DNA from: Victivallales bacterium
Lineage (GTDB): Bacteria > Verrucomicrobiota > Lentisphaeria > Oligosphaerales > Oligosphaeraceae
Length of the DNA stretch: 45,163 nt
Direction of reading: 5' to 3'
NCBI GenBank assembly: GCA_900769285.1
Contig: CAAGGB010000279.1
Span: 1-45,163 of the forward strand
The notes below the pieces were generated by a model. That model was not told where the DNA came from, made no database searches, and worked only from the letters and a program-made list of their open reading frames with translations. Both the position numbers and the translations under genes were made by a program. Position 1 is the stretch's first letter. Each line of letters begins with the position of its first letter. Positions 1,740 through 35,575 of the stretch are shown here, in pieces.

Positions 1740-1894
1740 CGCGCGGCACCCCAACGAACCACGCCAAATCAGCGCCGCCCGCCACGAATTCCCGCCTGGC
1801 TGCCATAGTGAAACACGCCAGCCGCATTATATTTTCCCCCTGACGTCATCCACCAGCCACAACCTCCACACCTCAGCAAGCAGAGCCATTCACC

Positions 1895-3913: not shown

Positions 3914-3946
3914 CCCGCCCCAACCCCACATCCCCCCCACACACAA

Positions 3947-3982
3947 CAGGACGGCCCGCCTCCTTCCGGAGACGGGCCGTCC
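3947..3982. terminator. Bidirectional hairpin between convergent genes (GRE and minus-strand membrane gene)
   Basis: Perfect 11-bp inverted repeat AGGACGGCCCG / CGGGCCGTCCT with a 14-nt loop, followed by TTGTCTG. It lies in the 119-bp gap between convergent stops at 3913 and 4033. The U-tract is weak. Confidence 0.5.
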
Positions 3983-4032
3983 TTGTCTGCCTGACCGCGC
4001 AGGCTCAGTCTGACGCCACCGCGCGGCGCGGC

Positions 4033-10839: not shown

Positions 10840-10943
10840 CACCGCCCGTTTCCCGCTTACATTACACCTCATGCGCCATGCTTCCGACGGCGCCCGGCCC
10901 CGCCTCCCACCAGACAAGACACGCACAGAGGAGAAACCTGTCC

Positions 10944-15700: not shown

Positions 15701-16594
15701 CGCGAACTCGACTTCAATCCCGAATTCGTCTTCGCCGCCGACGCTCCCCTCCAGCATGACCTCCTCCAGCAGCAGCTCGCCTGCCCCTCACCCTACCTCT
15801 TCGCCAAACTCCTCGTCCGCGTCGTCCACGAGAACAAAACCTACTGGCTCAACGACCAAAGCCAGTACGCCAACCTACAGACCTGCTCCCGTGACCGCTG
15901 CCCCGCCATGACCGCAGACGCCAAGCTCTTCACCATCACCACGCCCACACCCTTCCGCGAACAGCGCTCCACCTCCTTCAGCATCGCCATCGACGACCAC
16001 GGCGACGCCACACTCTCCTACACCGACGACATCCACGGCACACGCTTCGCCGCCGAAAACCGACGCTTCGCCGAACTCACACCCGAATACCGCCGACGCC
16101 ACTTCCTCGCCCTCGTCAGCCAGTTCTCCAAACGCGCCGTCCCCAGCTCCGAACTCGTCACCGACTTCTCCGGCTACCCCGCCAGACTCTCCTTCTCCTG
16201 CCGCATCCCCAAATTCGCCGTCATCGACGGCCCCTTCTGCTACTTCACCATCCCCAACGCCGCCTTCCGCGCACTCCCACTACGCTTCGACCACCAGCGC
16301 ACCACCCCCATCGCACACACACGGCACACCGAACTCACCTCCACCTTCACCATCACCCTCCCACCCTCACGGCGAACCGTCACCATGGCCCCTCAGAACT
16401 GGGACTGGCTCTCCCCCGACGGACAGTCACGCTACACCATCCGCACCACGCAGCCCACACCCGACACCCTCGTCTGCACCATGACCGCCAGCCAGGCGCC
16501 CGACGTCGCCTTCCCCGGACACCTCGACAAGTACAGACAGCTCGCCGACACCCTCACCCGAAACGACTCCAGAACCTTCCTCCTCAAGAAGTAG
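12743..16594 (+). CDS. Large secreted transglutaminase-like cysteine protease family protein (1283 aa)
   Basis: Signal peptide. The transglutaminase-like core is KRHGVCRDKAALLVAMLNLAGQQAFPVLIHAG (Cys), with downstream His (FNHAITAA) and Asp (ILMDPTDE) completing a putative triad. Confidence 0.8.
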   Translation: MPTSTRARLAALLCLLLATLCLAAAPATQPLDSPLPLDEQAMLKAAAAVTHQAFPEADTALVDDNVLTIYQQDGTSVTWDDMAYKVLTEKGRKSLQTLSLYYCASYGKAQFRFITLHKADGTKVELPIDKLTREMVEPSQMQSNIYNPNDKVIVANVPGLDVGDTIRYCVRRETFKPRCPNTFSDIHLLESDELIVRYTIIVDGPAELPLRHIAVRDPVGQTVRHSLDPSAPGRIRHRWTIANVPVIHREPKMPPLSRVAQRLMLSTIDSWKDVSAWYWRLCQPHLKPSPDMKAKVAELTRGLTDQQDIIRAIFTFVSQEIRYMGITIEDDAPGYEPHDVALTFAKRHGVCRDKAALLVAMLNLAGQQAFPVLIHAGNKMDHEVIQPYFNHAITAALAPDGSYILMDPTDENTRDLLPSYLADKSFLVAREQGDTLRTTPFSPASDNLLDITTTASIDERGNLDAKATLAFAGIHDNAYRGFFANATPEDRRSFVERVIRNVAPGAVLTRLDIIPANLLDTATPLRLDVAFTAESILTQNSTNALLAPPFLSSTFGMNNFILGSTQLDQRKYPFLSKYACAIRESLKLTLHPTWKTPDTLPDYQTVHDERLDWSRTVKADGQTLAFHTRFDLNAIEFSPQQYLTLKEQLRQLEDNARRRVILNRAATPQPATDATAGADAEILEHTIAFNLQDAYSWTQTDYSKTRILTYKGKKENAEVSLDFNPAWETIHVDLAKVTTPDGKGGTRTQTVSPQEMNLMDAEWVAAAPRYPASRRLVVSLPGVEIGSVIELKVTSTCKNGPAFSLQHAFRRHSAPVRHMSVSVNTPSQLKLSTAVHQNGIFASSANAHQSNIAETFVSENGRTIWTWTADSQPAIPDEPYQPPSIAFAPAILISATSWQQHLARLNQAISQRCIAGPRIREAAATIRKLPLNQRLAAVNTFLDKTIANAGPSFLELPLDRLSEPETTLADGYGHDADQAIAAFTLLRELDFNPEFVFAADAPLQHDLLQQQLACPSPYLFAKLLVRVVHENKTYWLNDQSQYANLQTCSRDRCPAMTADAKLFTITTPTPFREQRSTSFSIAIDDHGDATLSYTDDIHGTRFAAENRRFAELTPEYRRRHFLALVSQFSKRAVPSSELVTDFSGYPARLSFSCRIPKFAVIDGPFCYFTIPNAAFRALPLRFDHQRTTPIAHTRHTELTSTFTITLPPSRRTVTMAPQNWDWLSPDGQSRYTIRTTQPTPDTLVCTMTASQAPDVAFPGHLDKYRQLADTLTRNDSRTFLLKK

Positions 16595-19026: not shown

Positions 19027-19908
19027 ATGAAGCCCTACGCCTGGAACGGTATCCATCTGCAGCTCCCCGACGACTGGGAGATGCTCCAGTTCTCCAAGGA
19101 CCCCGCGCACGGTCGCATCGTCTTCGGCGACCGCTACCAACTGCGCTTCGAGCTCGACTGGGCCGCACTCGACCTCCCTCCTGACCTCGACCGCATGGCC
19201 GAGGACTACAAGGCAAAGCTCATCCAGGACGGCATCAAGGAGGCCAGACACACCGCCAGACACCCCTGGCAGGGCGTCACCGGACTCCAGGACGGCGCCC
19301 GCATCTCTCGCTACTGCGCCTACTTCAACGACCGCACCTACCTTCTCGAGGCCATCTTCCTCTGGCCACAGGACGACAACCCACGCCATAACCCGCAGTT
19401 CGAGGCGCGCCTCCTCGAGACCATCCGCGTCGTCCCACTCCAGAACGACCACCTCCAGGAATGGAACGCCTTCGGCATCCGCTGCCTCGCGCCCGACGAC
19501 CACCGGCTCGACGACTGCCTCGCCGAACCCGCCAACGTCCGACTCACCTTCACCTCCCCAGACCGCCGGCTCGAGGAGACCGCCACCCGCATCGGCATGC
19601 TCAAGGCCTGGCTCAACCGCGGCGTCGACGACTACCTCCGCACCCTCATCCCCAAGGACTACTCCCTCCTCTCCATGAGCCACGCCACTCAGGACGGACA
19701 CGACGTCTGGACCGCCGAGGCCACCATCACCCGAGCCGTCCTCACCGACTGGTGGCACGGCCGCAGACACTTCTCCGCCGCCGCCTGGATCTGCCCGCAG
19801 GACCAGCGGCTACGCATCCTCACACGAACCGCACCCGACCGCCGCGACGGACTCCCCCCGCCACCCGTCGCCCTCAGCTGCTGCGACAAGCTGGAGGTGA
19901 CCCTGTGA
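19027..19908 (+). CDS. Hypothetical protein (293 aa), no recognisable motif
   Basis: Codon usage is consistent with neighbours. The ATG lies 3 nt after the upstream stop, and its stop overlaps the next gene start (GTGA). This indicates a translationally coupled operon member. Confidence 0.6.
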   Translation: MKPYAWNGIHLQLPDDWEMLQFSKDPAHGRIVFGDRYQLRFELDWAALDLPPDLDRMAEDYKAKLIQDGIKEARHTARHPWQGVTGLQDGARISRYCAYFNDRTYLLEAIFLWPQDDNPRHNPQFEARLLETIRVVPLQNDHLQEWNAFGIRCLAPDDHRLDDCLAEPANVRLTFTSPDRRLEETATRIGMLKAWLNRGVDDYLRTLIPKDYSLLSMSHATQDGHDVWTAEATITRAVLTDWWHGRRHFSAAAWICPQDQRLRILTRTAPDRRDGLPPPPVALSCCDKLEVTL

Positions 19909-20282
19909 GCAAGCCCCACATCGCCACCGTCCAGGACAGCAACTGGAGACGAATGCTCCAGGCCATCCCCGAGAAGAACACCGCCGCACAGGTCACCCGA
20001 CACGGCGAGCAGGTCACCATCTCCATCCGCAACGTCCGGCCAGCCTACCTCAAGCCGCCCATCTCCTGGTTCGTCCCCTTCAAGGAACGCAGAGTCGTCA
20101 CCCTCGACCCAATCGGCACACGGCTCTGGTCCCTCTGCGACGGCTCGCGGACCGTCGAGGACCTCATCGACGCCTTCTGCGCCGACTACGGACTCACCTT
20201 CCACGAGGCCAAGACCTGCGTCACCGACTACCTCAAGAAGCTCGTCCAGAGAGGCGTCCTCGCTGTCGTCATCGACTCCTGA
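19905..20282 (+). CDS. PqqD-family protein (RiPP recognition element-like peptide chaperone), 125 aa
   Basis: VTLDPIGTRLWSLCDGSRTVEDLIDAFCADYGLTFHEAKTCVTDYLKKLVQRGVL fits the PqqD/RRE pattern (L-N-x-T-x-x-x-I-W-x-L-x-D-G-x-x-T-v-x-E-I-x-x-x-L-x-x-x-Y-x-v-...-D-v-x-x-F-L-x-x-L-x-x-x-G-L-I). The GTG start overlaps the upstream stop. Confidence 0.7.
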   Translation: MSKPHIATVQDSNWRRMLQAIPEKNTAAQVTRHGEQVTISIRNVRPAYLKPPISWFVPFKERRVVTLDPIGTRLWSLCDGSRTVEDLIDAFCADYGLTFHEAKTCVTDYLKKLVQRGVLAVVIDS

Positions 20283-20468
20283 CACCGCCACCAAAAAAAC
20301 CGCTCCCCGTAGGGGACGACGCCAATATGCGCCCCGCCCCATGCGTTGTAATCTAGTGTCGTGTTCCCCGGACACCCCGTCCGCGCACACACGCCCCCCC
20401 ACACACAAACTGGAACAGCATCACATAGCAAGCAAACCACCGACCAAAGGCACCCAGCAGGACCGAAC

Positions 20469-21986
20469 ATGAAAGAGATCAACATCGCAGAACAACCCTG
20501 GCTCAGTCTGAAGCGCACCGTGAAGATCACCATCGACGGCATCAGATACCGGTTGTTCCGGGCCACCGTCACCGTCGCCGTCATCGTCGTCGCCGTGGCC
20601 TTCCTCATGAACATCCTCGCCGAGTCCCTCATCAAGCGCGCCGTCGCCGCCGACACCCGCGAACGCTCCGACAACGCACAGCTCAACTCCAACTGGTCCA
20701 CCAAGCTCACCGCCACCGGCTCTCCCGAGTCCATCGTCGCCGAACTCGCCCGACTCGACGCCACCGCCGACGTCAACGTCGAGACCCGTAACTTCATCCG
20801 GCTCGCCGACGACGACTTCGCCAGGCTCCAGGACACCGCACGAGACGTCCAGTACGTCCTCGACTTCTTCGACGACCTCGACTACGCCAAGCGCCGAGAC
20901 CTCATCAAGACAGCCGCCGGACTCGAAATCCTCGACTACCTCGCGCGACCCGAGAACTTCGACACCTTCAAGCTCGGACTCGACCGCTACCGCATGATCC
21001 GCTTCGAGATGGACTTCGACAAGCTCCAGAAGCTCATCGCCGAACGCGCCGTCTTCCGCAAGACCCTCGACGACATCATCGCCAAGCGCCACGAGGCCAA
21101 CGCCAAGATCACCGCCTTCCTCAAGGCCGAGTACAGGGACAACCCAACACTCGTCAACGACGCCGACCGACTCGCCATGGCCATGACCAACGCCGACGGC
21201 AAATTCGGCGACGTCATCCGCAGCGCCGGCTTCAACTTCGACCCCCAGCGCATCGCACCCATCGTCGCCGACCAGGCCAAGAACCAGCAGTTCATCCTCC
21301 GCATGAAATTCTCCATCACCGGCGCCAGCAACAAGACCCGACAGCTCCTCGCGCAGGAGGCCAACAAGATACCCTCCGACATCAACGAGGCCATCATGTG
21401 GGACTACCTCGAAAGCGCCTCCTTCGCCAAGCGCTACATCCAGGTCATGCAGGAGAGCGGCATGGACACCACCGACCTCACCCCCGAACTCCTCGTCAAG
21501 CTCGCCAAGGCCCGCAAGGAGACCGCCGCGCTCGCACGCGCCAAGCGACTCACCATGGACTCCGGAAAGGGCTTCATGGGACTCGGCGAGCGACTCGCCT
21601 ACCTCCTCGTCGTCTCCTTCCTCGTCTGCGGCATCGGCATCACCAACGCCATGATGATGTCCGTCACCGAGCGCTTCACCGAAATCGCCACCCTCAAGTG
21701 CCTCGGCGCACTCGACGGCTTCATCATGATCATGTTCGTCCTCGAAAGCTGCATCATGGGCATCGTCGGCGGAACCATCGGCGCCGTCATCGGCGCCGTC
21801 ATCGGCACCGGACGCATGATGGCATCCTTCGGCGTCAACTTCTTCGCCGCCATCCCCGTCCTCGACATCTTCGGTGGCATCCTCATCTCCATCCTCCTCG
21901 GTACACTCCTCGCCGCCTTCGCCGCCGTCGTCCCATCCTTCAAGGCCGCACGGCTCGCACCCATGGAGGCCATGCGCGTCGAATAG
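20469..21986 (+). CDS. ABC transporter permease, FtsX/MacB family
   Basis: N-terminal TM (ATVTVAVIVVAVAFLMNIL), a ~330-aa periplasmic domain, then the FtsX signature MSVTERFTEIATLKCLGA followed by 3 TM helices. Confidence 0.85.
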   Translation: MKEINIAEQPWLSLKRTVKITIDGIRYRLFRATVTVAVIVVAVAFLMNILAESLIKRAVAADTRERSDNAQLNSNWSTKLTATGSPESIVAELARLDATADVNVETRNFIRLADDDFARLQDTARDVQYVLDFFDDLDYAKRRDLIKTAAGLEILDYLARPENFDTFKLGLDRYRMIRFEMDFDKLQKLIAERAVFRKTLDDIIAKRHEANAKITAFLKAEYRDNPTLVNDADRLAMAMTNADGKFGDVIRSAGFNFDPQRIAPIVADQAKNQQFILRMKFSITGASNKTRQLLAQEANKIPSDINEAIMWDYLESASFAKRYIQVMQESGMDTTDLTPELLVKLAKARKETAALARAKRLTMDSGKGFMGLGERLAYLLVVSFLVCGIGITNAMMMSVTERFTEIATLKCLGALDGFIMIMFVLESCIMGIVGGTIGAVIGAVIGTGRMMASFGVNFFAAIPVLDIFGGILISILLGTLLAAFAAVVPSFKAARLAPMEAMRVE

Positions 21987-22073: not shown

Positions 22074-22844
22074 ATGGAAGAGACCAACAGAACAGCAGCA
22101 GGCGAGAAGAGCGCCGAAAGGCGAGTCATCATCCGAACCGTCGGACTCAAGAAGATCTACACGATGAACAACGTCACCACCGAGGCCCTCCGAGGCGTCG
22201 ACATGTCCATCTTCCAGGGCGAGTTCATCTCCGTCATGGGCCCCTCCGGCTCCGGAAAGTCCACCTTCTTCAACATGATCGGCGCCCTCGACAGCCCCTC
22301 CATCGGACGCGTCTTCATCGACGAGGTCGACGTCGCCCAGCTCACCGCCGAGGAGCTCGCCTTCCTCCGCTGCCACAAGATCGGCTACATCTTCCAGAGC
22401 TACAACCTCATCCGCTACATGACCGCACTCGAGAACGTCACCACTCCCATGGCCTTCGGCGGTGTCCAGCCCGACGAGGCCCGCGAGCGCGGCATGAACA
22501 TCCTCGACCTCGTCGGACTCAAGGAACGCTGGCACCACCGCCCCATCGAGATGTCCGGCGGACAGCAGCAGCGCGTCGCCATCGCCCGCTCCCTCGCCAA
22601 CGACCCCTCCGTCCTCCTCTGCGACGAGCCCACCGCCAACCTCGACCTCCACACCGGACAGGAAATCCTCGACATCCTCAAGCGACTCAACGTCGAGAAG
22701 GGCGTCACCGTCATCTGCGCCACCCACGACCACCGCATGATGAACATCTGCGACCGGCTCATGTGGATCCGCGACGGACGCATCGACCGCATCGCCAACC
22801 GCGAGGACGTCCACATCGAGGTCGGAGGCATCGAGGGACACTGA
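22074..22844 (+). CDS. ABC transporter ATP-binding protein (MacB/LolD-type ATPase)
   Basis: Walker A GPSGSGKST, Q-loop, signature SGGQQQRVAIAR, Walker B LLCDEPTANLD and H-loop ATHD. Confidence 0.9.
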   Translation: MEETNRTAAGEKSAERRVIIRTVGLKKIYTMNNVTTEALRGVDMSIFQGEFISVMGPSGSGKSTFFNMIGALDSPSIGRVFIDEVDVAQLTAEELAFLRCHKIGYIFQSYNLIRYMTALENVTTPMAFGGVQPDEARERGMNILDLVGLKERWHHRPIEMSGGQQQRVAIARSLANDPSVLLCDEPTANLDLHTGQEILDILKRLNVEKGVTVICATHDHRMMNICDRLMWIRDGRIDRIANREDVHIEVGGIEGH

Positions 22845-22968: not shown

Positions 22969-25900
22969 ATGCGATCACTGCTCAAAACCTCAAGGGCCCT
23001 GGGACTGGGCGCCATCTTCAGTCTCACCGCTGGCCTGGCCTTCGCGCAGCAGCCGAACGACCCCAAGGCCACCTTCAACCGCGACTGCGCCGAAATCGGA
23101 CGCTTCCCGCACCGGCTCACCGGCACCGCCGAGTACCGCCAGGCCGCCGACTACATCGAGCGCCGCCTCCGCGCCATCGTCAGCGCCAAGGACGGCGACC
23201 AGGTCATCGTGCAGCCCTTCGACTCCGCCCAGATCGTCACCCCCACCGTCAAGACCGACCCCAACGACCGCCGCAACGACGCCATCGTCAAGGGACAGGA
23301 CCAGGAGGCCACCGCCACCCTTACCGCACCCGCCGGCAAGACCATCCGACTCCACCCCATGAGGCCCAACGGCATCATCCCGCCCGCCACCCCGCGCGGA
23401 GGCCTCTCCGGTCACATCGTCTACCTCGGACGCGGCGACGCCGCCGACTTCAACCGCATCAACGTCAAGGACGCCATCGTCGTCCTCAACTACAACTCCG
23501 GACAGGGCTTCATCCGCGCCTTCCGACTCGGCGCCAAGGCCATCGTCTTCACCCGCGGCAACGACATGCCCGAGAAGGCCATGTCCTCCAGCCCCCACTT
23601 CGCCGACTGCAACGTCAACCTCATGCGCTACTACTTCGACGGCACCGCCGCCCAGCTCAAGGCCGACTGCCCCGAGAACGCCACCGTCGCCATCGACTGC
23701 AAGCTCAACTGGGGCTACGCCCGCGGACGTAACATCTACGCCTACATCAAGGGCACCAACGCCAAATTCGACCCCGACAAACGCCATGAGGTCATCGTCC
23801 TCGCCGCCAACCTCGACACCTTCGGCGAAGTCCCCAACCTCACCCCAGGCGCCCGCGGAGCCGCCAACGCCGCCGCGCTCCTCCGACTCGCCGAACACAT
23901 CGTCGCCAGCCGCCCGCGACGCGATGTCGTCATCGCCTTCTTCGACCAGCAGGCCCGCGGACACGTCGGCGTCTCGCACTTCTACCAGGCCATCGAGGAC
24001 AAGAAGGACAACCAGGTCACCGACCGCCGCATCTCCTTCCGCAACGAGACCAACTTCATGAAGCTCATGGACGAGCAGCTCGCCGACGCCTCCCCGCTCA
24101 CCAAGAGCTCCGACGTCCGCAAGAAGCTCCTCGACAAGCTCGAGGTCCTCTCTCAGACACACGCCTACTACTACAAGAACGAGGCCTACGAGAAGCGCGA
24201 ACGGCTCAACCAGCGCAAGAAGGCCGCCGCCGCCGCAGGCGGCGTCACCGACGAGCTCCGCAAGGAGGAGCAGGAGCTCAACCAGCTCATCGCCGCCGAA
24301 CTCGAGCCCAAGAAGATGGCCTGGAACGAAGTCCAGAGAACCATCGGACGCGAAAAGCGCAAGTACACCGGCGACGACCAGCCCCTCCAGCTCGACCCCG
24401 AACTCTCCGAACAGGAGCGCACCCTCGTCAACCAGTTCCTCGCACAGGTCCTCGACGAGGCCCGCCGCGACTACGACGTCCGCAAGGAGGAGCTCAAGCG
24501 CGAGGACGAGGCCCTCGCCGCCGACGAGGCACTCTACGACATCTTCTACCCCAAGGCCCTCGACGAACAGGGACAGCCCATCCTCGAGAACGAGGAGGAC
24601 GGCATCTACGCCCGCGACCCCAAGCAGGCCCGAACCATCGTCCTCCACGCCTCCCTCCTCCTCGGCGACACCACCCGCAAGTGGGCCATCATCATCGGCG
24701 GCGACTCCTCCATCCACAGCGGCGACGACAACCAGGGACTCTACGGCAAGGTCCGCAACGCCTTCCTCAACGCCTACAAGGCCATCGCCGCCAACGCCGC
24801 CCCCAACGCCGACGTCCAGGACAACTTCCTCGTCGAGTCCGCTGACCAGAAGCTGAACCAGACCCGCGTCATCTGGGCCGCACCCAGACTCGTCCACTCC
24901 GGCGAAATGGCCGGCGTCCTCGGCTACTTCAACCTCGCACTCGGAACCGTCCAGGAGGCCACCCTCCTCGAGGGCACGCCCGACGACACCTTCGCCAACA
25001 TCAGCGCCGACGCCATCTACGCGCAGATCCGCGACATCGAGCGCTTCTTCGCACCCGCCGCCAACTTCCCCGAACAGGCCGCCGCCGACATGCTCGGAAA
25101 CCAGGAGGGACTCTCCCTCAACAAGGGCTTCCCCACCAACAAGGAGTACTTCATCGCCAAATTCGACGAGGACAACAACACCAAGGGACCAACCGTCATG
25201 GGCATGCTCCCCGGCACCTCCACCCCCAACACACCCCTCGCCGGCGCCATCGTACAGCTCCGACTCTCCCGCAACTTCTCACTCGCCTACGCCGAGTCCA
25301 AATTCGTCGCCTTCGACAACTACCAGGTCCACCGCACCGACGCCAACGGACACTACAACCTCGGCCCCCTCAACGGACGCACCGCCGGCTCCTGGGGCGG
25401 CTTCGCCGCCGTCTTCCGCCCCGAAGGCAACCTCGATGAGGTCTCCGCGCAGAGCACCTACACCAACGGCACCATCCGCTACCGACTCAACACCTTCAAG
25501 GCCAAGGGCGCCTACGTCGTCCTCCCCTCACAGCAGCGCACCGAAAAGCTCCCCGGCGAGGACGTCAAAATCCTCTCCTCAAAGGCCAACGCCGACCTCG
25601 TCACCAACCGCTCCTTCTCCGAGACCGTCGACGGCATCGTCGCCTGGTACTCCGACGAGCGCGAGCGCGGCGTCAAGCTCTTCTCTCTCCGACAGATGGT
25701 CGGACTCAACAACGGCAACGAGCAGAAGAGCCGACTCGACGCCTCCGACGCCGGTAAGCTCCAGGACGACGGCACCGACAAGTACGTCGGCGTCGGCTTC
25801 GAAATGACCGAACACCCCATCAGCGTCAACGCCGCCGCACGCTCCGCCTCCGACCTCTGGCGCATCAACGACTCCAGACTCGACATCCTCCGCAACAAGG

Positions 25901-28185
25901 GCATCCTCGACTCCTCACTTGCCGAACTCCACGGACGCTCCGAGGACATGCTCAACGACGCCGCTGACTCACAGCAGCCCATGCGCCGCGAGGCTCTCAA
26001 CACCTTCTCCTTCTGGTCCTCCAGACCCGTCTACCTCAAGGTCCGCTCCATGCTCGACGACCTCGTCTTCGCCGTCCTCATCCTCCTCGGACTCTCCGTC
26101 CCCTTCGCCTTCGCACTCGAACGCGTCATCATCGGCGCCGTCACCATCTACAAGCAGATCTCCTGGTTCATCGCGTTCTTCGCCATGACCTTCGTCCTCC
26201 TCTACCTCACCCACCCCGCCTTCGCCATCGCCAACACACCCATCATCATCTTCCTCGGCTTCGCCATCGTCGTCATGTCCTGCATGGTCATCTTCATCAT
26301 CATGCGCAAATTCGAGGTCGAGCTCAAGGCCATGCAGGGCATGACCGCCACCGTCCACGTCAACGACGTCTCCAACATCTCCACATTCATGGCCGCCATG
26401 CAGATGGGCATCTCCACCATGAGACGACGCCCCACCCGCACCGCCCTCACCGCCATCACCATCATCCTCCTCACCTTCACCATCCTCTGCTTCGCCTCCT
26501 TCGGCACCCAGAACGGCATCGTCACCATCTCCGTCGCCCCCAACCCCAAGTACAACGGCGCCTTCGTCCACAACGTCAACTGGAACCCGCTCTCCGAAGA
26601 CCTCAAGGACATGATCACCTACAGCCGGGCCGGCGAAGGCGAATCCTCCGCCATCCGCTCCGTCTGCAAGCGACTCTGGATCTCACCCAAGACTCAGGAC
26701 AACCCCGGACTCCTCATCTCCAGAGCCGACGGAACGCTCCCGACCACCATCCGCGGCGTCCTAGGCATCGAGCCTCAGGAACTCAACGAGCGCGAGGAAT
26801 TCATGGAGTACTTCCAGAAGATCGACGACGACTCCATCCTCATCACCCAGCCCGTCGCCGAATACCTCAAGGTCGCCGAGGGCGACACCGTCGTCCTCAA
26901 GGGACACACCTTCAAGGTCGGAAAGATCTTCGACAACGTCAGGGTCTCCGCCGCCAAGGACATGGACACCTCCTCCATCCTCCCCGCCGACTTCACCGAA
27001 ATGACCGCCAACCAGCCCGTCTCCTCAGACAACGACGAGGAGATGGACGCCATGAGCCAGCGAAACTGGTCCTCCATCCCCGTCGACCAGGTCGTCATCG
27101 TCTCCGCCAACAACGCCAAGCTCCTCGGAGCTAACCTCTACGCCCTCGTCGTCTACACAAACACCACCCAGCAGGCCATCTCCATCGCCGAGGAGCTCGC
27201 CCGTGTCCTCAACATCCCCATCCCCGCCACCCGCGAGAACGGCGTCGAACGACACCTCCTCGGCTCCGTCCTCAAGGCCTCCGGCGCCAAGGACCTCTTC
27301 TTCCCCATCGTCCTCGGCGGACTCGTCATCTTCGGAACCATGCTCGGCTCCGTCGCCGACCGCAAGAAGGAAATCTACACCTTCTCCGCACTCGGTCTCG
27401 CCCCGAGACACGTCGCCACACTCTTCTTCGCCGAATCCATGGTCTACGCCCTCATCGGCGGCCTCGGCGGATACCTCCTCGCTCAGGGTACCCTCAAGAT
27501 CCTCGGCTTCCTCGCCGAATACGGCATCGTCAGAGTCCCCGAGATGAACATGTCCTCCACCAACACCATCGTCACCATCCTCATCGTCATGGCGACCGTC
27601 CTCATCTCCTCCATCTACCCCGCCATCAAGGCCTCAAAGTCCGCCAACCCCGGACTCATGAGAACCTGGAGACCACCCAGACCCGACGGCGACGTCATGG
27701 ATCTCGTATTCCCCTTCACCGTCTCCCAGTACGACATCACCGGCGTCCTCTCCTTCCTCAAGGAGCACTTCGCCAACCACACCGACACCGGACTCGGACA
27801 GTTCATGACCTCCAGCGTCGAACTCGTCAAGGAAAAGGACGCCAAGGAACTCGCACTCGGACTCGACGCCAAGCTCGCGCTCGCACCCTTCGACCTCGGC
27901 GTCTCCCAGAACTTCTCCCTCCGCAGCGCTCCCTCCGAAATCGAGGGCATCGACGAGGTCCGCGTCATCCTCTCCAGAGCCTCCGGACAGCCCAAGGACT
28001 GGCAGAGACTCAACAAGGTCTTCCTCGATGACCTCAGACAGCAGTTCCTCATCTGGCGCTCCGTCCCCAAGGACACCATGGAGATGTACCGCCACAGAAC
28101 CCTCACCAGCATCGACGGCATCGCTGAAGTCGTCACCCCGCCCAAAAAGGCCGACGCCAACCCCGACGCCAAACCAAAGGCCTAA
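22969..28185 (+). CDS. Giant fusion protein (1738 aa): N-terminal PA-domain/M28-peptidase-like ectodomain (metal ligands substituted), coiled-coil region, 3 TM linker, complete FtsX/MacB-type permease
   Basis: Signal peptide MRSLLKTSRALGLGAIFSLTAGLAFAQQ. The M28-like N-terminus has HRLTGTAEYRQAADYIERRL and a PA-domain-like insert DAIVVLNYNSGQGFIRAFRLGAKAIVF. In the M28 core the canonical H-x-D, GAxDNASG and EE metal ligands are replaced (VLAANLD, GARGAANAA, FFDQQ). A Glu/Lys-rich helical region follows (KKAAAAAGGVTDELRKEEQELNQ...). Three hydrophobic helices lie at residues ~1040-1110. The FtsX N-terminal helix is MRRRPTRTALTAITIILLTFTILCF, with a periplasmic domain after it. The FtsX core is KKEIYTFSALGLAP plus 3 TM, and the cytoplasmic tail is ~170 aa. 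Confidence 0.8.
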   Translation: MRSLLKTSRALGLGAIFSLTAGLAFAQQPNDPKATFNRDCAEIGRFPHRLTGTAEYRQAADYIERRLRAIVSAKDGDQVIVQPFDSAQIVTPTVKTDPNDRRNDAIVKGQDQEATATLTAPAGKTIRLHPMRPNGIIPPATPRGGLSGHIVYLGRGDAADFNRINVKDAIVVLNYNSGQGFIRAFRLGAKAIVFTRGNDMPEKAMSSSPHFADCNVNLMRYYFDGTAAQLKADCPENATVAIDCKLNWGYARGRNIYAYIKGTNAKFDPDKRHEVIVLAANLDTFGEVPNLTPGARGAANAAALLRLAEHIVASRPRRDVVIAFFDQQARGHVGVSHFYQAIEDKKDNQVTDRRISFRNETNFMKLMDEQLADASPLTKSSDVRKKLLDKLEVLSQTHAYYYKNEAYEKRERLNQRKKAAAAAGGVTDELRKEEQELNQLIAAELEPKKMAWNEVQRTIGREKRKYTGDDQPLQLDPELSEQERTLVNQFLAQVLDEARRDYDVRKEELKREDEALAADEALYDIFYPKALDEQGQPILENEEDGIYARDPKQARTIVLHASLLLGDTTRKWAIIIGGDSSIHSGDDNQGLYGKVRNAFLNAYKAIAANAAPNADVQDNFLVESADQKLNQTRVIWAAPRLVHSGEMAGVLGYFNLALGTVQEATLLEGTPDDTFANISADAIYAQIRDIERFFAPAANFPEQAAADMLGNQEGLSLNKGFPTNKEYFIAKFDEDNNTKGPTVMGMLPGTSTPNTPLAGAIVQLRLSRNFSLAYAESKFVAFDNYQVHRTDANGHYNLGPLNGRTAGSWGGFAAVFRPEGNLDEVSAQSTYTNGTIRYRLNTFKAKGAYVVLPSQQRTEKLPGEDVKILSSKANADLVTNRSFSETVDGIVAWYSDERERGVKLFSLRQMVGLNNGNEQKSRLDASDAGKLQDDGTDKYVGVGFEMTEHPISVNAAARSASDLWRINDSRLDILRNKGILDSSLAELHGRSEDMLNDAADSQQPMRREALNTFSFWSSRPVYLKVRSMLDDLVFAVLILLGLSVPFAFALERVIIGAVTIYKQISWFIAFFAMTFVLLYLTHPAFAIANTPIIIFLGFAIVVMSCMVIFIIMRKFEVELKAMQGMTATVHVNDVSNISTFMAAMQMGISTMRRRPTRTALTAITIILLTFTILCFASFGTQNGIVTISVAPNPKYNGAFVHNVNWNPLSEDLKDMITYSRAGEGESSAIRSVCKRLWISPKTQDNPGLLISRADGTLPTTIRGVLGIEPQELNEREEFMEYFQKIDDDSILITQPVAEYLKVAEGDTVVLKGHTFKVGKIFDNVRVSAAKDMDTSSILPADFTEMTANQPVSSDNDEEMDAMSQRNWSSIPVDQVVIVSANNAKLLGANLYALVVYTNTTQQAISIAEELARVLNIPIPATRENGVERHLLGSVLKASGAKDLFFPIVLGGLVIFGTMLGSVADRKKEIYTFSALGLAPRHVATLFFAESMVYALIGGLGGYLLAQGTLKILGFLAEYGIVRVPEMNMSSTNTIVTILIVMATVLISSIYPAIKASKSANPGLMRTWRPPRPDGDVMDLVFPFTVSQYDITGVLSFLKEHFANHTDTGLGQFMTSSVELVKEKDAKELALGLDAKLALAPFDLGVSQNFSLRSAPSEIEGIDEVRVILSRASGQPKDWQRLNKVFLDDLRQQFLIWRSVPKDTMEMYRHRTLTSIDGIAEVVTPPKKADANPDAKPKA

Positions 28186-28261: not shown

Positions 28262-30298
28262 ATGTCAGTACACAAGATAGACAAAGAACTTGACGAATTC
28301 AGAAAAATCATGGAAGTCCCCTCCACCTTCGAGGAGGGCTTCAACTGGACCGCGCTCTTCGGAGCCATCTTCGTCGCCCTCCTCATGGTCCCAGGCGCCA
28401 TCTACATGGGCCTGCTCGCCGGACAGGGCATCGGCGACGCCGCACAGTGGGTCACCGTCATCCTCTTCATCGAGGTCGCCAAACGCGCCCACCGATACCT
28501 CAACAAGTCCCAGATCTTCGTCCTCTTCTACATGGCCGGCGCACTCATGGGCGCCGCCACCACCGGAGGTCTTCTCTGGCAGCAGTTCTTCATCCAGTCC
28601 GACGCCGTCGCCGCCAACGGCATGACCACCCAGATCCCACGCTGGTACGCGCCATCCCTCGAGTCCACCTCCTACGTCAACAGAACCTTCTTCCACGTCG
28701 ACTGGCTCCCCGCCATCGTCCTCCTCGTCATCGGCTCCTTCATCGGACAGCTCTCACACCTCGTCCTCGGATACGGACTCTTCCGCGTCTGCTCCGACAT
28801 GGAGAAGCTCCCCTTCCCCATGGCCCCCGTCGGCGCACAGGGCATCATGGCCATGGCCGAGGACATCGAGGCCAAGAACAACAAGGACGCCGAAGGCTCC
28901 TGGCGCTGGAGAGTCTTCGCCATCGGCGGTGCGCTCGGACTCGCCTTCGGCCTCATCTACCTCTTCCTCCCCGTCATCTCCGGCGCACTCACCGGCACCG
29001 CCATCCAGATCTTCCCCATCCCATTCTCCGACTTCACCGACAAGACCGGACAGTTCCTCCCAGCCGTCGCCACCGGCATCAACTGGAGCTTCGGCAACCT
29101 CATCGCCGGCATGGTCATGCCCTACTGGGGCATGGTCGGCTCCTTCATCGGACTCATCGTCACCGTCGTCGCCAACCCCATCCTCTACAAGTACGGCATG
29201 CTCTCCAACTGGAAGACCGGCGACGACACCATCTGGACTCTCTTCAAAAACAACATCGACTTCTACTTCTCACTCCACATCGGCATCGCCCTCGCCATCG
29301 CCATCGCCGGCATCTTCCAGGTCGTCAAGAGCCTCCACGCCAGCAGAAAGGCCCGCAAGGACCCCAACACCCGCGTCGAACTCGGCTCCTGGAAGGACGT
29401 CCCGCAGGGACGCGGAGACTTCTCCGCCTGGTTCATCCTCCTCTGCTACTTCTTCGTCACCTGCTCCTACATCGGCATCTCCATCGGACTCCTCTGCTGG
29501 CATAACACCAGCAACGGCCTCCCCGCCTGGAACTCGCAGATCACCAGCGTCCTCATCGTCCTCCTCATCCTCGGCTTCGTCTACACACCCCTCATCAGCT
29601 ACGTCACCGCGCGACTCGAGGGCATGGTCGGACAGGTCGTCGAAGTCCCGATGATCCGCGAGGCCGCCCTCATCCTCTCCGGATACAAGGGCATCGCCAT
29701 CTGGTTCCTCCCCCTCCCCATCGCCAACTACGGCGCCTCCACCGTCTTCTACCGCCAGTGCGAACTCACCGGCACCAAGTTCACCTCCATCTGGAAGACC
29801 AAGATCATCCTCTATCCGCTCGTCCTCTTCGCCTCCATCTTCTTCATGAACTTCATCTGGGGACTCGACAAGATACCGTCCGTCGCCTACCCGTTCGCGC
29901 AGAAGATGTGGGAGCTCAACGCCGCCAACTCCTGCATCATGTTCACCGCCACCATGGGTGAGTACTCCATGTTCGAGCGCGCCTTCAACCCCATGATCAT
30001 CGGCGCCGGCACCTTCTTCGGACTCTTCCTCTTCACCACCATGAACATCCTCGGCGCACCCATCATGCTCACCTACGGCGTCGTCCGCGGACTCGGACAG
30101 AGCGCCCCACACACCATCCTCCCACAGTTCATCGGAGCCCTCATCGGACAGTTCTACTTCAAGAGAAAGCTCCAGCTCAAGTGGAGGCAGTACATCCCCG
30201 TCGTCGCCGCCGGCTTCTCCTGCGGCATGGGCCTCATCACCACCGTCGGCGTCGGCGTCACCTTCCTCTCCAAGGCCGTCATCAAGCTGCCGTTCTGA
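28262..30298 (+). CDS. Polytopic integral membrane protein (678 aa, 12 or more predicted TM), family unassigned; possibly OPT-like
   Basis: Continuous ORF with GAGGAA RBS 9 nt upstream. Translation is dominated by hydrophobic helices. No FtsX, ABC or MFS signature was recognised. Confidence 0.65.
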   Translation: MSVHKIDKELDEFRKIMEVPSTFEEGFNWTALFGAIFVALLMVPGAIYMGLLAGQGIGDAAQWVTVILFIEVAKRAHRYLNKSQIFVLFYMAGALMGAATTGGLLWQQFFIQSDAVAANGMTTQIPRWYAPSLESTSYVNRTFFHVDWLPAIVLLVIGSFIGQLSHLVLGYGLFRVCSDMEKLPFPMAPVGAQGIMAMAEDIEAKNNKDAEGSWRWRVFAIGGALGLAFGLIYLFLPVISGALTGTAIQIFPIPFSDFTDKTGQFLPAVATGINWSFGNLIAGMVMPYWGMVGSFIGLIVTVVANPILYKYGMLSNWKTGDDTIWTLFKNNIDFYFSLHIGIALAIAIAGIFQVVKSLHASRKARKDPNTRVELGSWKDVPQGRGDFSAWFILLCYFFVTCSYIGISIGLLCWHNTSNGLPAWNSQITSVLIVLLILGFVYTPLISYVTARLEGMVGQVVEVPMIREAALILSGYKGIAIWFLPLPIANYGASTVFYRQCELTGTKFTSIWKTKIILYPLVLFASIFFMNFIWGLDKIPSVAYPFAQKMWELNAANSCIMFTATMGEYSMFERAFNPMIIGAGTFFGLFLFTTMNILGAPIMLTYGVVRGLGQSAPHTILPQFIGALIGQFYFKRKLQLKWRQYIPVVAAGFSCGMGLITTVGVGVTFLSKAVIKLPF

Positions 30299-30431: not shown

Positions 30432-31163
30432 ATGGCTCAGCAGCAAGAAGTACTCATCAAAGTCGAACACGTCAACAAGACGTTCAACCTCGGCAAAGTC
30501 ATCGTCCATGCCCTCAAGGACATCAACCTTGAGATCTACCGCGGCGAATACCTCTCCATCATGGGCCCGTCAGGCTCCGGAAAGAGCACCATCTTCAACA
30601 TGATCGGCGCACTCGACAAGCCCTCCTCCGGCTTCGTCGAAGTCGCCGGCGTCAACCTCACTAAGCTCACCGCCCGACAGCTCGCCCATTTCCGCGGCAA
30701 CCACATCGGCTACGTCTTCCAGGCCTACAACCTCCTCCACGCCTACGACGCCATCACCAACGTCATGATGCCGCTCCTCTTCTCCGGAGTCGACCCCGAA
30801 AAGGCCCGCGAACGCGCCATCGAGGTCCTCAAGATGGTCGAGCTCGGACACCGGCTCACCCACAAGCCCGACGAGATGTCCGGCGGTCAGCAGCAGCGTG
30901 TCGCCATCGCCCGCGCCCTCGCCAACGAGCCCGCCATCATCCTTGCCGACGAGCCCACCGCCAACCTCGACCTCAACACCGGCGAGGAAATCATCCACCT
31001 ACTCTCCGACCTCTCACGCCGACTCGGCGTCACCGTCATCACCGCCACCCACGACCACAAGATGCTCGCCTCCTCCGACCGCATCCTCTGGATCAAGGAC
31101 GGACAGGTCGACAAGCTCGAACGCCGCGAAGACCTCAACATCAAGGTCGGCACCGTCAAATAA
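30432..31163 (+). CDS. ABC transporter ATP-binding protein (second MacB/LolD-type ATPase)
   Basis: Walker A GPSGSGKST, signature SGGQQQRVAIAR, Walker B ILADEPTANLD and H-loop ATHD. It is a paralog of the ATPase at 22074. Confidence 0.9.
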   Translation: MAQQQEVLIKVEHVNKTFNLGKVIVHALKDINLEIYRGEYLSIMGPSGSGKSTIFNMIGALDKPSSGFVEVAGVNLTKLTARQLAHFRGNHIGYVFQAYNLLHAYDAITNVMMPLLFSGVDPEKARERAIEVLKMVELGHRLTHKPDEMSGGQQQRVAIARALANEPAIILADEPTANLDLNTGEEIIHLLSDLSRRLGVTVITATHDHKMLASSDRILWIKDGQVDKLERREDLNIKVGTVK

Positions 31164-32676: not shown

Positions 32677-34614
32677 ATGAACCTGCTGTTGGCACTGTTC
32701 AGGTACTTCCCCGGAGGCGGCCTCCAGAACGACACGCTACGCTTTGCCGAGGAGGCGGCGCGGCGTGGACATCACGTCACCATCCTCTGCACCGCCTGGG
32801 AAGGCGAACGGCCCAAGAAAATCGAGGTCGTCATGCGCCCCATCCGCGCCTGGACCAACCATGGTGCCATGGAGCGTTTCGCACGACTCGTCACCGACTA
32901 CCGGCTGACCCATACCGTCGATGTCTCCCTCGCCATGAACCGTATCCCCGGCTGCGACGCCTACTTCGTGGCCGACTCATGCATGGCAGCTTATCTGCCC
33001 TGCAGCCACTCCCGTGCCGTTCTTGCTTGTCTGCCCCGTTACCATGCCATCCTGCATCAAGAAGCACTTGTCTGCTCTCCCCACGCCCATACCCAACTCC
33101 TCTATATAGCTCAACAGCAGCTTCACGACTACAGCCGTGTCTACCATCTGCCTTCAGCCCGCCTAGCCTACTTGCCTCCAGGCATGGATGAACGCTGCCA
33201 ACTCCTGACGGACACCTCCATCCGCCAGGATATTCGTGCTAAATTGAGCTTGAATAAGGAAACCTGCGCCGTGATTCTGATCGGAACAAACCTACACCGA
33301 AAGGGCGTGGATCGGGCACTTCGCGCTCTGGCCAGTCTGCCCGATGACACCCCCGCACACTTTTTTCTGGTCGGTATGGACAAGCCAGCCAACGTCGCCA
33401 AACTCGCCACCATGACGGGTGTTGATCGCGCACACTTCACCTTTCTGGGAGCGCGCCGAGATGTCCCCGACCTGCTCCATGCCATGGACCTGATGCTTCA
33501 CCCAGCCCGAGAGGAGGGCACCGGCACCGTCCTGGTCGAGGCCATCGCCTCCGGACTGCCCGTCATCTGCAGTGAGGTGTGTGGCTTCGCCAGCTTTGTC
33601 CGCGAGGCCACCGACACGGTCATCCCGGCCCCCTTCCACCAACAGGAGCTCAATAGCCTGCTCGCCCAGTCCATCCGACGTCTCGCCGAACTGAAGCGCC
33701 AGACCAGACAGTATGCCGCCACGCAGGACTTCACAGCACGCTCCCGAGTCGCTATCGATAGACTGGAGACACTCGCCCAAGCCCGCCAACAGCTTAATCT
33801 GGCTGTGCTCTGTCCTGCCCCCGCCACGCCCCCCTTCAGTTCGCTGCCACCTGAACTGACCGATGTCTGCCAGACGGACAATACCATCTGGACAACCCTC
33901 CACGGCCTTCCCATCGACCTCCTCAATCGTCTGCCCGACCTCCACGACCAATGCGCCACAGAAAGGCGTCTGCTCCTGGATACGCCTACGCTTCGTGTCA
34001 GCAGAGTGACGCTGGAGGGTATGTCGCTCCTGGTCAGGGAGTATCACGGCGATCGGCGACCTGCCTGGCTCAGCCCTGCCTGGCGCACGTGGAAAACCCT
34101 TCAGTCCATCCGGGGACTTGCCGTGCCCTGCCTAGCCCTCGCCGAACAGCGACACCGACGTCTCCTCGTCCTCGCCGACCCAGGCGTCGACAGCCTGGCT
34201 GATGCGACCACTCACCCAAATCTCCCCGACCTCCTCCTCGCCGCTGGCTCCCTGCTCGCCACCCTCCATGAACGTGGCGTCTTCCTGCGTCACGCTGCTG
34301 CCGACCACTTTGTCCTCAACGAGCTTTGCCCTTGGATGCCCTCGCCCCTCCTTCTCGCCGACGGCGGTAACCTCCGGAAGAGCCGCTGGCTGTCCCGCCG
34401 ACACCGCGTCCGAAACCTCGCCCAACTGCTCGCCTCCCTGAAAAGACTTCCAGACGATGCCTCACACCAAGTGGCAAAAGGCTACCAGCTCGCCGCCAAC
34501 CTCGATGACCAGCAGATGCAGGCACTTCTGGAAGAGGTCGCAGCATCTACGGAAAAGCACTTCCAAGATTGCCTCAGTACGTTTTCGCAGATGACACAGG
34601 AAGACCATGAATAA
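32677..34614 (+). CDS. WaaG(RfaG)-like GT4 glycosyltransferase fused to a C-terminal lipopolysaccharide-kinase (Kdo/WaaP/InaA)-like domain
   Basis: The N-terminus MNLLLALFRYFPGGGLQNDTLRFAEEAARRGHHVTI matches the WaaG start (..YKYFPFGGLQRDF..). The GT-B E-x7-E motif EEGTGTVLVEAIASGLPVICS is present. The C-terminal ~270 aa contains LHERGVFLRHAAADHFVLNE, resembling the LPS-kinase catalytic loop but with substitutions. Confidence 0.75.
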   Translation: MNLLLALFRYFPGGGLQNDTLRFAEEAARRGHHVTILCTAWEGERPKKIEVVMRPIRAWTNHGAMERFARLVTDYRLTHTVDVSLAMNRIPGCDAYFVADSCMAAYLPCSHSRAVLACLPRYHAILHQEALVCSPHAHTQLLYIAQQQLHDYSRVYHLPSARLAYLPPGMDERCQLLTDTSIRQDIRAKLSLNKETCAVILIGTNLHRKGVDRALRALASLPDDTPAHFFLVGMDKPANVAKLATMTGVDRAHFTFLGARRDVPDLLHAMDLMLHPAREEGTGTVLVEAIASGLPVICSEVCGFASFVREATDTVIPAPFHQQELNSLLAQSIRRLAELKRQTRQYAATQDFTARSRVAIDRLETLAQARQQLNLAVLCPAPATPPFSSLPPELTDVCQTDNTIWTTLHGLPIDLLNRLPDLHDQCATERRLLLDTPTLRVSRVTLEGMSLLVREYHGDRRPAWLSPAWRTWKTLQSIRGLAVPCLALAEQRHRRLLVLADPGVDSLADATTHPNLPDLLLAAGSLLATLHERGVFLRHAAADHFVLNELCPWMPSPLLLADGGNLRKSRWLSRRHRVRNLAQLLASLKRLPDDASHQVAKGYQLAANLDDQQMQALLEEVAASTEKHFQDCLSTFSQMTQEDHE

Positions 34615-35563
34615 CCACATTGATATGGTGTACCTTTGGGTAGATGGCTCTGACCCAGTATGGCTGGCCAAGAAGGAGCAATATCTCCACCAGGCAGACC
34701 GCCAGGAACACCAGTTGGCGGTTCCTGAACGCTGGCAGGACAACGATGAGCTGCGCTTCTCCCTGCGCAGTGTAGAGCAGTTTGCCCCCTGGATACATCA
34801 TATCTTCCTGGTAACGGACGGCCAATGTCCGTCCTGGCTACGACGTGACCATCCAAAACTGACACTGATAGACCATCGCGAGTTTATTCCCAAGGACTAC
34901 CTGCCTGTGTTTTGTGCGGATGCCATAGAATCCTTTCTTCCTCTGATACCTAACCTCTCTGAGCGTTTTTTATTTGCCAATGACGATATGTTCTTTGGAC
35001 GAGAAATCTCCCCCAACCGGTTCTTCGATTCCAAAGGTGATCCACTGGTGCAGGTCAAGCACCTTTATGACCATGATTTCTGCCAAGATTCAGAACTGAC
35101 GACACGCCTGCTGCAGGATTGCCACTACGCTTCGCGCGCACGGGCTAATGTCATGGTCTCCAAACTGTTTGGCCATCCCATGAACTGGGAAGGCGGACAT
35201 GTCATAGACCCCTGTCGCAAATCTTATATGCAGGAAGCCTTGGCAGAGCCCGCGTTCGCGGAGGCATGGGAAACCACCCGAAGGCACCGGTTCCGCTCCC
35301 CTGAAGCAGTCCAGCGAATTCTCTTCCCCCTCTATGACGCCTGCAAAGGACGCACCAGACTGCTGAGCGTGCATCGCTTCAAGGAGTGGAAAAGGCTTTT
35401 CTGTCCCTGGAGAATTCCCTACTACCTGTGTAGCGTGAAGGATCTGCAAAAAGTCATGAGCATTCGGCCAGAAATGTTCTGCTACTATGTTGGCGACTAC
35501 TATGCTGAACTGCGCCAGTTCTTCCATGCGTATTTTCCTAAGAAATCTAGTTTTGAAAAATAA
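34607..35563 (+). CDS. Stealth-family hexose-1-phosphoryltransferase (capsule/glycan phosphotransferase)
   Basis: Stealth CR1 DMVYLWVDGSDPVW and CR2 DELRFSLRSVEQFAPWIHHIFLVTDGQCPSWL. The start overlaps the upstream stop by 8 nt. Confidence 0.85.
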   Translation: MNNHIDMVYLWVDGSDPVWLAKKEQYLHQADRQEHQLAVPERWQDNDELRFSLRSVEQFAPWIHHIFLVTDGQCPSWLRRDHPKLTLIDHREFIPKDYLPVFCADAIESFLPLIPNLSERFLFANDDMFFGREISPNRFFDSKGDPLVQVKHLYDHDFCQDSELTTRLLQDCHYASRARANVMVSKLFGHPMNWEGGHVIDPCRKSYMQEALAEPAFAEAWETTRRHRFRSPEAVQRILFPLYDACKGRTRLLSVHRFKEWKRLFCPWRIPYYLCSVKDLQKVMSIRPEMFCYYVGDYYAELRQFFHAYFPKKSSFEK

Positions 35564-35575
35564 TTGGAGAAGACT

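Follow-up and report, generated by a model that had tools for sequence, protein, structure and literature searches.

A large FtsX-type permease with an M28-like, putatively non-catalytic periplasmic head is the centrepiece of an undescribed type VII ABC system in Lentisphaeria and related bacteria

We analysed a 45,163-nucleotide stretch of DNA from a Victivallales bacterium (assembly GCA_900769285.1, contig CAAGGB010000279.1; hereafter the window), focusing on the large permease encoded at 22969..28185 on the + strand. An earlier note, made from the sequence alone, had read its product as a degenerate M28/PA peptidase-like ectodomain joined through three transmembrane (TM) helices to a complete FtsX permease. 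We find that the large permease is the centrepiece of an undescribed system of 6-8 genes, kept across the Planctomycetes-Verrucomicrobia-Lentisphaerae group (PVC group), and that this system is a genuine, undescribed variant among ATP-binding cassette (ABC) systems of type VII. Type VII ABC systems are the known route by which bacteria spend ATP from the cytoplasm on mechanical work in the periplasm; only a few of their output modules are understood. To this design the family adds a covalently attached output module of ~1000 residues, apparently a pseudo-enzyme, together with three additional TM helices and a cytoplasmic domain that is likewise conserved. Its set of partners is unprecedented: a membrane protein that is OPT-like, a chaperone of the PqqD type and a conserved protein of 293 residues that we call orf293.

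The gene is a single unbroken frame of 1738 codons followed by a stop. A copy at 98% identity lies on a separate contig of a Lentisphaeria metagenome-assembled genome (L001), and the same long open reading frame (ORF) is present in 74 of 80 loci. Since the homologue clusters are also nearly all full length, we rule out a frameshift or assembly artefact, and the fusion in one gene proposed in the earlier note stands. Searching 5.8 billion proteins gave 63 clusters whose identity is 30-98% and whose proteins almost all have 1550-1900 residues, and a pattern scan over one genome per GTDB species found relatives in at least 589 genomes. The carriers belong to Lentisphaeria/Victivallales, Kiritimatiellia, Verrucomicrobiota/Opitutales, Planctomycetota/Phycisphaerae and Sumerlaeia, with single matches in Omnitrophota. 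Long FtsX proteins with M28-like N-termini, which the earlier note had left to a database check, are thus found with the full-length architecture in hundreds of genomes. When the ectodomain alone was used in a filter-free phmmer search of 1.84 billion representatives, we obtained 1198 matches at E<=1e-3 (130 at E<=1e-30), and the long ones were almost all proteins of 1500-2100 residues; the ectodomain therefore essentially never occurs without the FtsX unit.

Public annotation describes the relatives only as "FtsX-like permease family protein" or "hypothetical", and the literature that we consulted on type VII ABC fusions, M28 pseudo-peptidases, PVC signature clusters and DUF6785/DUF6784 does not describe the family and mentions neither of these two DUFs. 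The envelope biology of Lentisphaerota, Kiritimatiellia, Verrucomicrobiota, Planctomycetota/Phycisphaerae and Sumerlaeia is poorly understood. The nearest cultured carrier, Oligosphaera ethanolica DSM 24202 (61% identity, L007), makes the system open to experiment. An exception to the pairing of ectodomain and FtsX unit is the orphan copy P0055 (1386 residues, L081:9001-13161, on a 5.97 Mb contig of GCA_041320515.1), which matches query residues 47-1277 and then diverges, and whose gene adjoins a ParE toxin gene away from all cluster partners. Because of this divergence and of its position outside the cluster, P0055 is probably a truncated or frameshifted paralogue, or a pseudogene.

The assignment to the type VII ABC systems rests on the C-terminal part of the protein. 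Pfam PF02687 (FtsX) matches residues 1445-1557 at 43.8 bits against a gathering score of 25.5 (E 3e-11), and the four TM helices of the unit enclose, between TM1 and TM2, a large Porter-type periplasmic domain of the MacB fold; the complete FtsX unit recognised earlier is therefore confirmed. In the AlphaFold2 model of residues 1000-1738, the predicted local distance difference test score (pLDDT) is 69.5 overall and ~90 for the periplasmic domain. This 4-TM unit with its periplasmic domain is shared with MacB, LolCDE, FtsEX, HrtBA, YtrEF and YbbAP, as are the LolD/MacB-type ATPases encoded alongside and, with lolCDE, the permease-ATPase-permease gene order. On the other hand, the large permease differs from these systems by its N-terminal periplasmic module of ~1000 residues, its three extra TM helices and its conserved cytoplasmic tail of 180 residues, and the cluster differs by its two distinct ATPases and its OPT-like, PqqD and orf293 partners, and by having no gene for an adaptor or an outer-membrane duct.

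Hydropathy gives seven TM helices, which are consistent with a topology in which the N-terminus lies outside, three TM helices lead into the cytoplasm, and a linker, FtsX TM1 and the periplasmic domain precede a cytoplasmic C-terminus. The outside position of the N-terminus would follow from cleavage of the predicted signal peptide; the charge distribution fits an N-out/C-in arrangement, and the conserved linker before FtsX TM1 contains the motif MRRRPTRT. As the window also encodes a TonB-dependent receptor, the organism is a diderm, and "outside" means the periplasm. The figure of ~1000 residues outside the membrane holds for the N-terminal module, to which the FtsX periplasmic domain would add ~260.

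The mean identity to the query is 69% in the three-TM block, 74% in the linker, 84% in FtsX TM1, 77% in TM2-4 and 67% in the tail, compared with 25-56% in the segments of the ectodomain. Being conserved so far above the ectodomain, neither the three-TM block nor the tail can be regarded as passive. Consequently, the three extra TM helices seen earlier do exist, but their description as a "3-TM linker" does not suit one of the best-conserved segments of the protein. The tail has 74% mean column identity, a beta-alpha-beta4-alpha-alpha topology in the AlphaFold2 model and two invariant motifs, PFTVS.YD and APFDLGV. It has no sequence relative in the PDB, and a profile search for other architectures containing it yielded nothing but fragments from the C-terminus of the family itself.

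We considered whether the system could belong to one of the named branches of its class. NCBIfam scores are far below the cut-offs for LolC/E, FtsX, MacB and DevC. The order of the genes agrees with that of LolCDE, but the LolC/E models give the small permease 45 bits, where the cut-off is 362, and do not match the large permease. The FtsX models give 17-22 bits against 225-255, and the two ATPases reach 198 and 206 bits against 265 for FtsE. A tripartite pump of the MacAB-TolC type is rejected as well, no adaptor or outer-membrane factor being recurrent within the 8 kb flanks of the 80 loci. Another arrangement would be a duplicated FtsX permease in the style of YbbP, BceB or ADOP, with the N-terminal segment as TM1, a 1000-residue loop and the three-TM block as TM2-4. 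A hydrophobic N-terminal segment, a big loop and three TM helices would fit this topology, and Foldseek gives a weak match to YbbP over ~800 columns. However, the three-TM block shows no similarity to FtsX TM2-4 (hhalign probability <1%), Pfam finds one FtsX domain only, so that a second FtsX TM domain is absent, and the ADOP model scores 38.6 bits against 622. Moreover, the N-terminal segment resembles a signal peptide that would be cleaved between AFA and QQ, it is poorly conserved and its hydropathy is under the TM threshold, and a separate FtsX partner gene is present in 56 of 57 loci. We thus regard duplication as extremely improbable.

The periplasmic head has the alpha/beta fold of M28 peptidases. 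Residues 118-341 align with the PA-containing M28 aminopeptidase 2EK8 (phmmer, E 6e-5), a PA-like insert occupies about residues 121-250, and Pfam Peptidase_M28 reaches 20.7 bits over residues 265-344, slightly short of its gathering score of 21.3, in a match that covers only profile positions 4-82 of 193. Some relatives do have a precomputed Pfam Peptidase_M28 match, and others one to Nicastrin. An AlphaFold2 model of residues 27-1020, built with 18 homologues, reached a pLDDT of 87.1 and a predicted template modelling score (pTM) of 0.88. With this model, Foldseek retrieved 2EK8 at E 1.4e-17 and BSAP, PaAP, GCPII and TfR1 within 1e-17 to 1e-13, the values for human GCPII and transferrin receptor being ~1e-14. 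The M28/PA layout claimed for the N-terminus is therefore borne out by sequence and by predicted structure.

The closest relatives of the head in sequence and fold, 2EK8 of Aneurinibacillus AM-1, BSAP of B. subtilis and PaAP of P. aeruginosa, are secreted, active di-zinc enzymes, whereas the mappable ligands of the head are replaced throughout the family. The replacements fall in three degenerate motifs, AANLD (279-283), PGARGAAN (293-300) and FFDQQARGH (324-332). In the HMMER alignment the His of the H-x-D motif becomes N281 and D283 is retained (N281-L-D283), the bridging Asp becomes P293, the catalytic Glu Q328 and the ligand Glu A329. The earlier note had also proposed substituted zinc ligands. 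Its reading of H-x-D as N-L-D was right, and the loss is family-wide; its equation of GARGAANA with GAxDNASG and of QQ with the two glutamates was off by ~4 residues and by 1 residue, respectively. An acidic ligand is supplied by no register, ours or the earlier one.

Among 61 aligned homologues, position 281 is N, P, A, Y or D, with H in three; R296 is found in 57 and Q at position 328 in 48. In a larger set of 139 representatives clustered at 50%, 110 have Pro at position 293 and none has Glu at position 329; most carry Gln, His or Arg in place of the catalytic Glu, and the residue at the first His varies between P, N, H, A, D and Y. The full set of zinc ligands and catalytic residues occurs in none of the 61 + 139 sequences. 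Intact ligands would have pointed to an active peptidase; in essentially the whole family the His, the bridging Asp and the catalytic Glu are absent. With the Pfam match under its gathering score and the mappable ligands replaced, we reject the assignment as a regular active M28 metallopeptidase. The near-invariance of the replacement motifs (PGARGAAN, D283, D326 and D567, with Q328 also kept) speaks for a pocket conserved for a role other than catalysis, and we infer that it is a binding or gating site rather than an enzyme.

The same conservation could be read in another way, namely that the M28-like domain is a re-wired active enzyme (using, for example, D283, D326, H560, D567, H643 and E646) and the protein a membrane-anchored, ATP-regulated hydrolase. 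Several acidic and His residues are indeed invariant or nearly so along with the replacement motifs, and two ligand positions are unmapped. Against this stand the prevailing Pro at position 293, the ligand Glu that is never Glu, the catalytic Glu that is mostly Gln, His or Arg, and the variability of the first His. To our knowledge, no M28 enzyme works without the first His, the bridging Asp and the ligand and catalytic Glu. We consider a re-wired enzyme very unlikely.

A binding role would have parallels elsewhere. The transferrin receptor and nicastrin are non-catalytic, membrane-anchored binders, and together with GCPII these eukaryotic proteins share the M28+PA fold of the head. The head differs from them in being bacterial and periplasmic, in sitting on a 7-TM ABC permease instead of a single TM helix, in carrying a probable helical insertion within the domain, and in its identity of only ~15-18%. 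If our reading holds, an M28/PA scaffold would have been re-used as a binder in bacteria too, in parallel with nicastrin and the transferrin receptor.

The insertion just mentioned corresponds to the Glu/Lys-rich helical region, which the earlier note had placed after the M28 domain. The helices are there, modelled by AlphaFold2 at model residues 324-346, 358-396, 402-438 and 455-500 (protein residues 350-526), and they form the least conserved part of the protein (25% mean identity to the query). Their position has to be revised: the strand/helix pattern of the model picks up again at protein residues ~553-700, so that the helices probably sit inside the M28-like domain. The segment that would complete this domain, residues 546-705, has an invariant D567 and conserved H560, H643 and E646. 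A profile of residues 548-705, searched for the last two M28 ligand positions, had no sequence match in the PDB; D567 and H643 are candidates only for the second Asp/Glu and the C-terminal His ligands. The beta-rich region that comes next is modelled as strands at model residues 699-886 with a pLDDT of about 80-90, and a Pfam search gave no match for residues 706-915.

The gene context, which the earlier note had missed, shows the large permease to be one of two FtsX permeases in a conserved cluster that also holds two ATPases. We established synteny by tblastn of the window neighbours on the 80 loci followed by ORF clustering, and the counts refer to loci with enough flanking sequence. In the window the order is orf293, the PqqD-type gene, the second FtsX permease, ATPase 1, the large permease, the OPT-like gene and ATPase 2. 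The motifs of both LolD/MacB-type ATPases are intact, from Walker A and the signature to Walker B D-E and the H-loop, and an ABC ATPase such as the earlier note had expected is thus encoded twice. The OPT-like protein matches Pfam OPT at E 1.8e-6, as do 22 of 31 relatives; it has 65% mean column identity and no PDB match by sequence. In many loci, though not in the window, the cluster includes a DUF6785/DUF6784 protein, which is weakly related to the OPT-like family (hhalign probability 71%).

The protein orf293 has no Pfam, NCBIfam or PDB match, and in one relative it forms a single 450-residue fusion protein with PqqD. In the window the GTG start of the PqqD-family gene overlaps the stop codon of orf293 (GTGA), eight bases downstream of a GGAGG at 19893-19897; the product is also matched by the NCBIfam PqqD models, and the program-made ORF list does not show the gene as a separate entry. 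Overlaps between start and stop codons occur at several loci and suggest co-translation. For the second permease the listed GTG at 20361 probably lies too far upstream; the likely start is M37 at 20469, giving ~505 residues, because tblastn homologues align from residue ~31-38. Its 330-residue periplasmic region is charged, helical-looking and without a Pfam match, unlike a normal Porter/Sabre domain.

A distant subfamily, 26% identical (L082:13772-21594 and L083), keeps a large permease, a 687-residue and a 295-residue protein, PqqD, a short FtsX protein of 228 residues and a single ATPase. At one distant-subfamily locus the cluster is followed by genes for a SPOR-domain protein, GrpE and FtsZ, an adjacency not repeated in the other loci examined, and we therefore rejected it as a functional clue. 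Within the 8 kb flanks of the 80 loci no membrane-fusion protein, outer-membrane factor or hydrolase is recurrent, and no other gene family occurs in more than 12. A scan for promoters and terminators found nothing beyond chance.

Considering all the above results, we propose, with about an even chance of being right, that the large permease is the large subunit in an inner-membrane ABC machine of type VII, heteromeric and of the MacB/FtsX fold, whose pseudo-peptidase head is moved by ATP and handles a peptide or protein ligand. Mechanotransmission is the working principle of this fold (PMC5985334). By analogy, the two FtsX permeases would pair in a LolC/LolE-like manner on a dimer of the two ATPases, and ATP binding and hydrolysis would zip and unzip the stalk helices, moving the periplasmic domains and, with them, the pseudo-peptidase module. 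The zinc-less pocket would then bind or gate a peptide or protein ligand with no role as an enzyme, and the extra TM block might offer a docking surface to the OPT-like partner. A peptide theme recurs in three compartments (PqqD in the cytoplasm, the OPT-like protein in the membrane, the aminopeptidase-fold head in the periplasm), and the ligand is therefore most likely a peptide or protein segment. More generally, a role directed at peptides or at the envelope seems plausible. The ATP-driven periplasmic "lever" of the earlier note is partly supported, in that the parts for it, including a non-catalytic head, are present; that the head moves and binds is suggested by the analogy.

Several points weigh against this proposal. 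The permease heterodimer, the pairing of the ATPases and the contact with the OPT-like protein are all deduced from gene order. The last two M28 ligands are unmapped, and the conserved H560, D567, H643 and E646 could make up what is left of a metal or catalytic site. The extra three-TM block is modelled at low confidence (pLDDT <50). Furthermore, clustering found no conserved small precursor-like ORF, returning only antisense artefacts within conserved genes, in a search that was weak since coding regions were left unmasked.

A bolder version would couple the heterodimeric type VII engine mechanically to an OPT-superfamily channel, with the nicastrin/transferrin receptor-like pseudo-peptidase as periplasmic receptor or gate and the PqqD-type protein as cytoplasmic receiver. 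We hold this version to be doubtful. If it were true, the coupled machine would be an ATP-gated route across the inner membrane, characteristic of PVC-group bacteria, by which peptides or segments of proteins are moved or sensed, and we know of no ABC or OPT system working in that way.

A different function is suggested by FtsEX, which governs amidases via the catalytically dead LytM protein EnvC (PMC7668044). The dead metallopeptidase and the helices of the large permease could likewise be an EnvC-like regulator in cis, activating or inhibiting a periplasmic hydrolase under the control of ATP in cell-wall or envelope remodelling. The logic of the parts is the same in both systems, an FtsX-type engine with a catalytically dead metallopeptidase on long periplasmic helices, and the SPOR-domain protein and FtsZ beside the cluster in the one distant subfamily locus would agree with it. 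However, that adjacency is not repeated elsewhere, the conserved neighbourhood has no recurrent gene for a hydrolase, and the PqqD chaperone and the OPT-like partner are left unexplained. Moreover, EnvC is a separate protein of the M23/LytM type, whereas the head is M28/PA, covalently fused and without an evident amidase partner. We therefore judge this function unlikely; should it prove correct, the family would parallel EnvC as a dead peptidase serving as an ABC-driven regulator.

Finally, the PqqD-family recognition element coupled to orf293 raises the idea of an export, processing or immunity machine for a ribosomally synthesized and post-translationally modified peptide (RiPP), in which PqqD and orf293 would handle a precursor in the cytoplasm, either the OPT-like protein or the ABC part would move it and the periplasmic head would bind or shield it. 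Type VII ABC systems often handle peptides (PMC5985334), which would agree with such a machine. Of the features of a RiPP cluster, the PqqD domain is present, while the unmasked search gave no conserved small ORF and orf293 belongs to no recognisable family of modifying enzymes. No gene for a membrane-fusion protein or an outer-membrane factor is conserved nearby. Furthermore, the very high conservation and the fixed synteny over several phyla have the look of a housekeeping system rather than of a patchy secondary-metabolite cluster. We regard the RiPP idea as rather improbable.

The features on which our proposal of an ATP-moved pseudo-peptidase head is built are collected in Table 1.

Table 1. 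Parts of the large permease and members of its conserved gene cluster. Positions refer to the window unless a locus is named.
Feature	Residues	Position	Strand	Basis or conservation
Sec-type signal peptide, MRSLLKTSRALGLGAIFSLTAGLAFA, predicted cleavage before QQ	1-26	22969..23046	+	sequence reading
M28/PA aminopeptidase-like domain, N-terminal part	27-345	23047..24003	+	Pfam, phmmer, AlphaFold2, Foldseek
Glu/Lys-rich helical insertion	346-545	24004..24603	+	AlphaFold2 helices
Probable second half of M28-like fold	546-705	24604..25083	+	AlphaFold2 pattern and column counts
Beta-rich periplasmic region	706-915	25084..25713	+	AlphaFold2 strands
Three juxtamembrane helices	950-1020	25816..26028	+	AlphaFold2 helices, model residues 929-992
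Extra three-TM block	1021-1115	26029..26313	+	hydropathy, conservation
Cytoplasmic linker and FtsX TM1 (MRRRPTRTALTAITIILLTF...)	1116-1155 and 1156-1180	26314..26508	+	
MacB-type periplasmic domain between FtsX TM1 and TM2	1181-1438	26509..27282	+	
FtsX C-terminal domain (TM2-4), including the coupling helix KKEIYTFSALGLAP	1439-1558	27283..27642	+	Pfam PF02687
Cytoplasmic tail and stop codon	1559-1738	27643..28185	+	
orf293, conserved cytoplasmic protein, first cluster gene		19027..19908	+	45/57 loci
PqqD-family peptide-chaperone (RiPP recognition element) gene	125 in all	19905..20282	+	Pfam PF05402, E 7e-12; 47/57 loci
Second FtsX-type permease	541 as listed	20361..21986	+	Pfam FtsX, E 1e-13; 56/57 loci
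ABC ATPase 1, LolD/MacB/FtsE-like	256 in all	22074..22844	+	56/57 loci
OPT-superfamily-like polytopic membrane protein	678 in all	28262..30298	+	directly downstream in 61/61 loci
ABC ATPase 2, LolD/MacB-like	243 in all	30432..31163	+	58/61 loci
DUF6785/DUF6784 polytopic membrane protein	~680 in all	L024:3740-5770, L005:3182-5266 and 38 other loci		40/57 loci; absent from the window

Some further observations concern the window as a whole. Its G+C content is ~65% and nearly all genes lie on the + strand. Over the 34 kb from 1 to 34000 the GC skew is -0.2 to -0.43 and the AT skew reaches +0.3, and as a result of this strong strand bias in composition long spurious antisense ORFs abound, such as that of 635 residues at 22990-24897 on the - strand. 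Upstream of the cluster, a 1316-residue ORF (1294-5244) has no Pfam match, and two giant genes on the + strand, at 9168-12533 and 12743-16594, encode a 1121-residue SPFH/Band7-flotillin protein and a 1283-residue protein with a transglutaminase core and DUF3857. Between 34500 and 38000 the G+C content falls from ~65% to 47-50%. This stretch holds genes for a Stealth-family protein (34607-35563) and a GT8 glycosyltransferase (35564-36505), and within it begins a gene for a 1060-residue surface protein with BspA-type leucine-rich repeats and Big_2 domains (36686-39868), and it looks like a horizontally acquired surface-glycan island.

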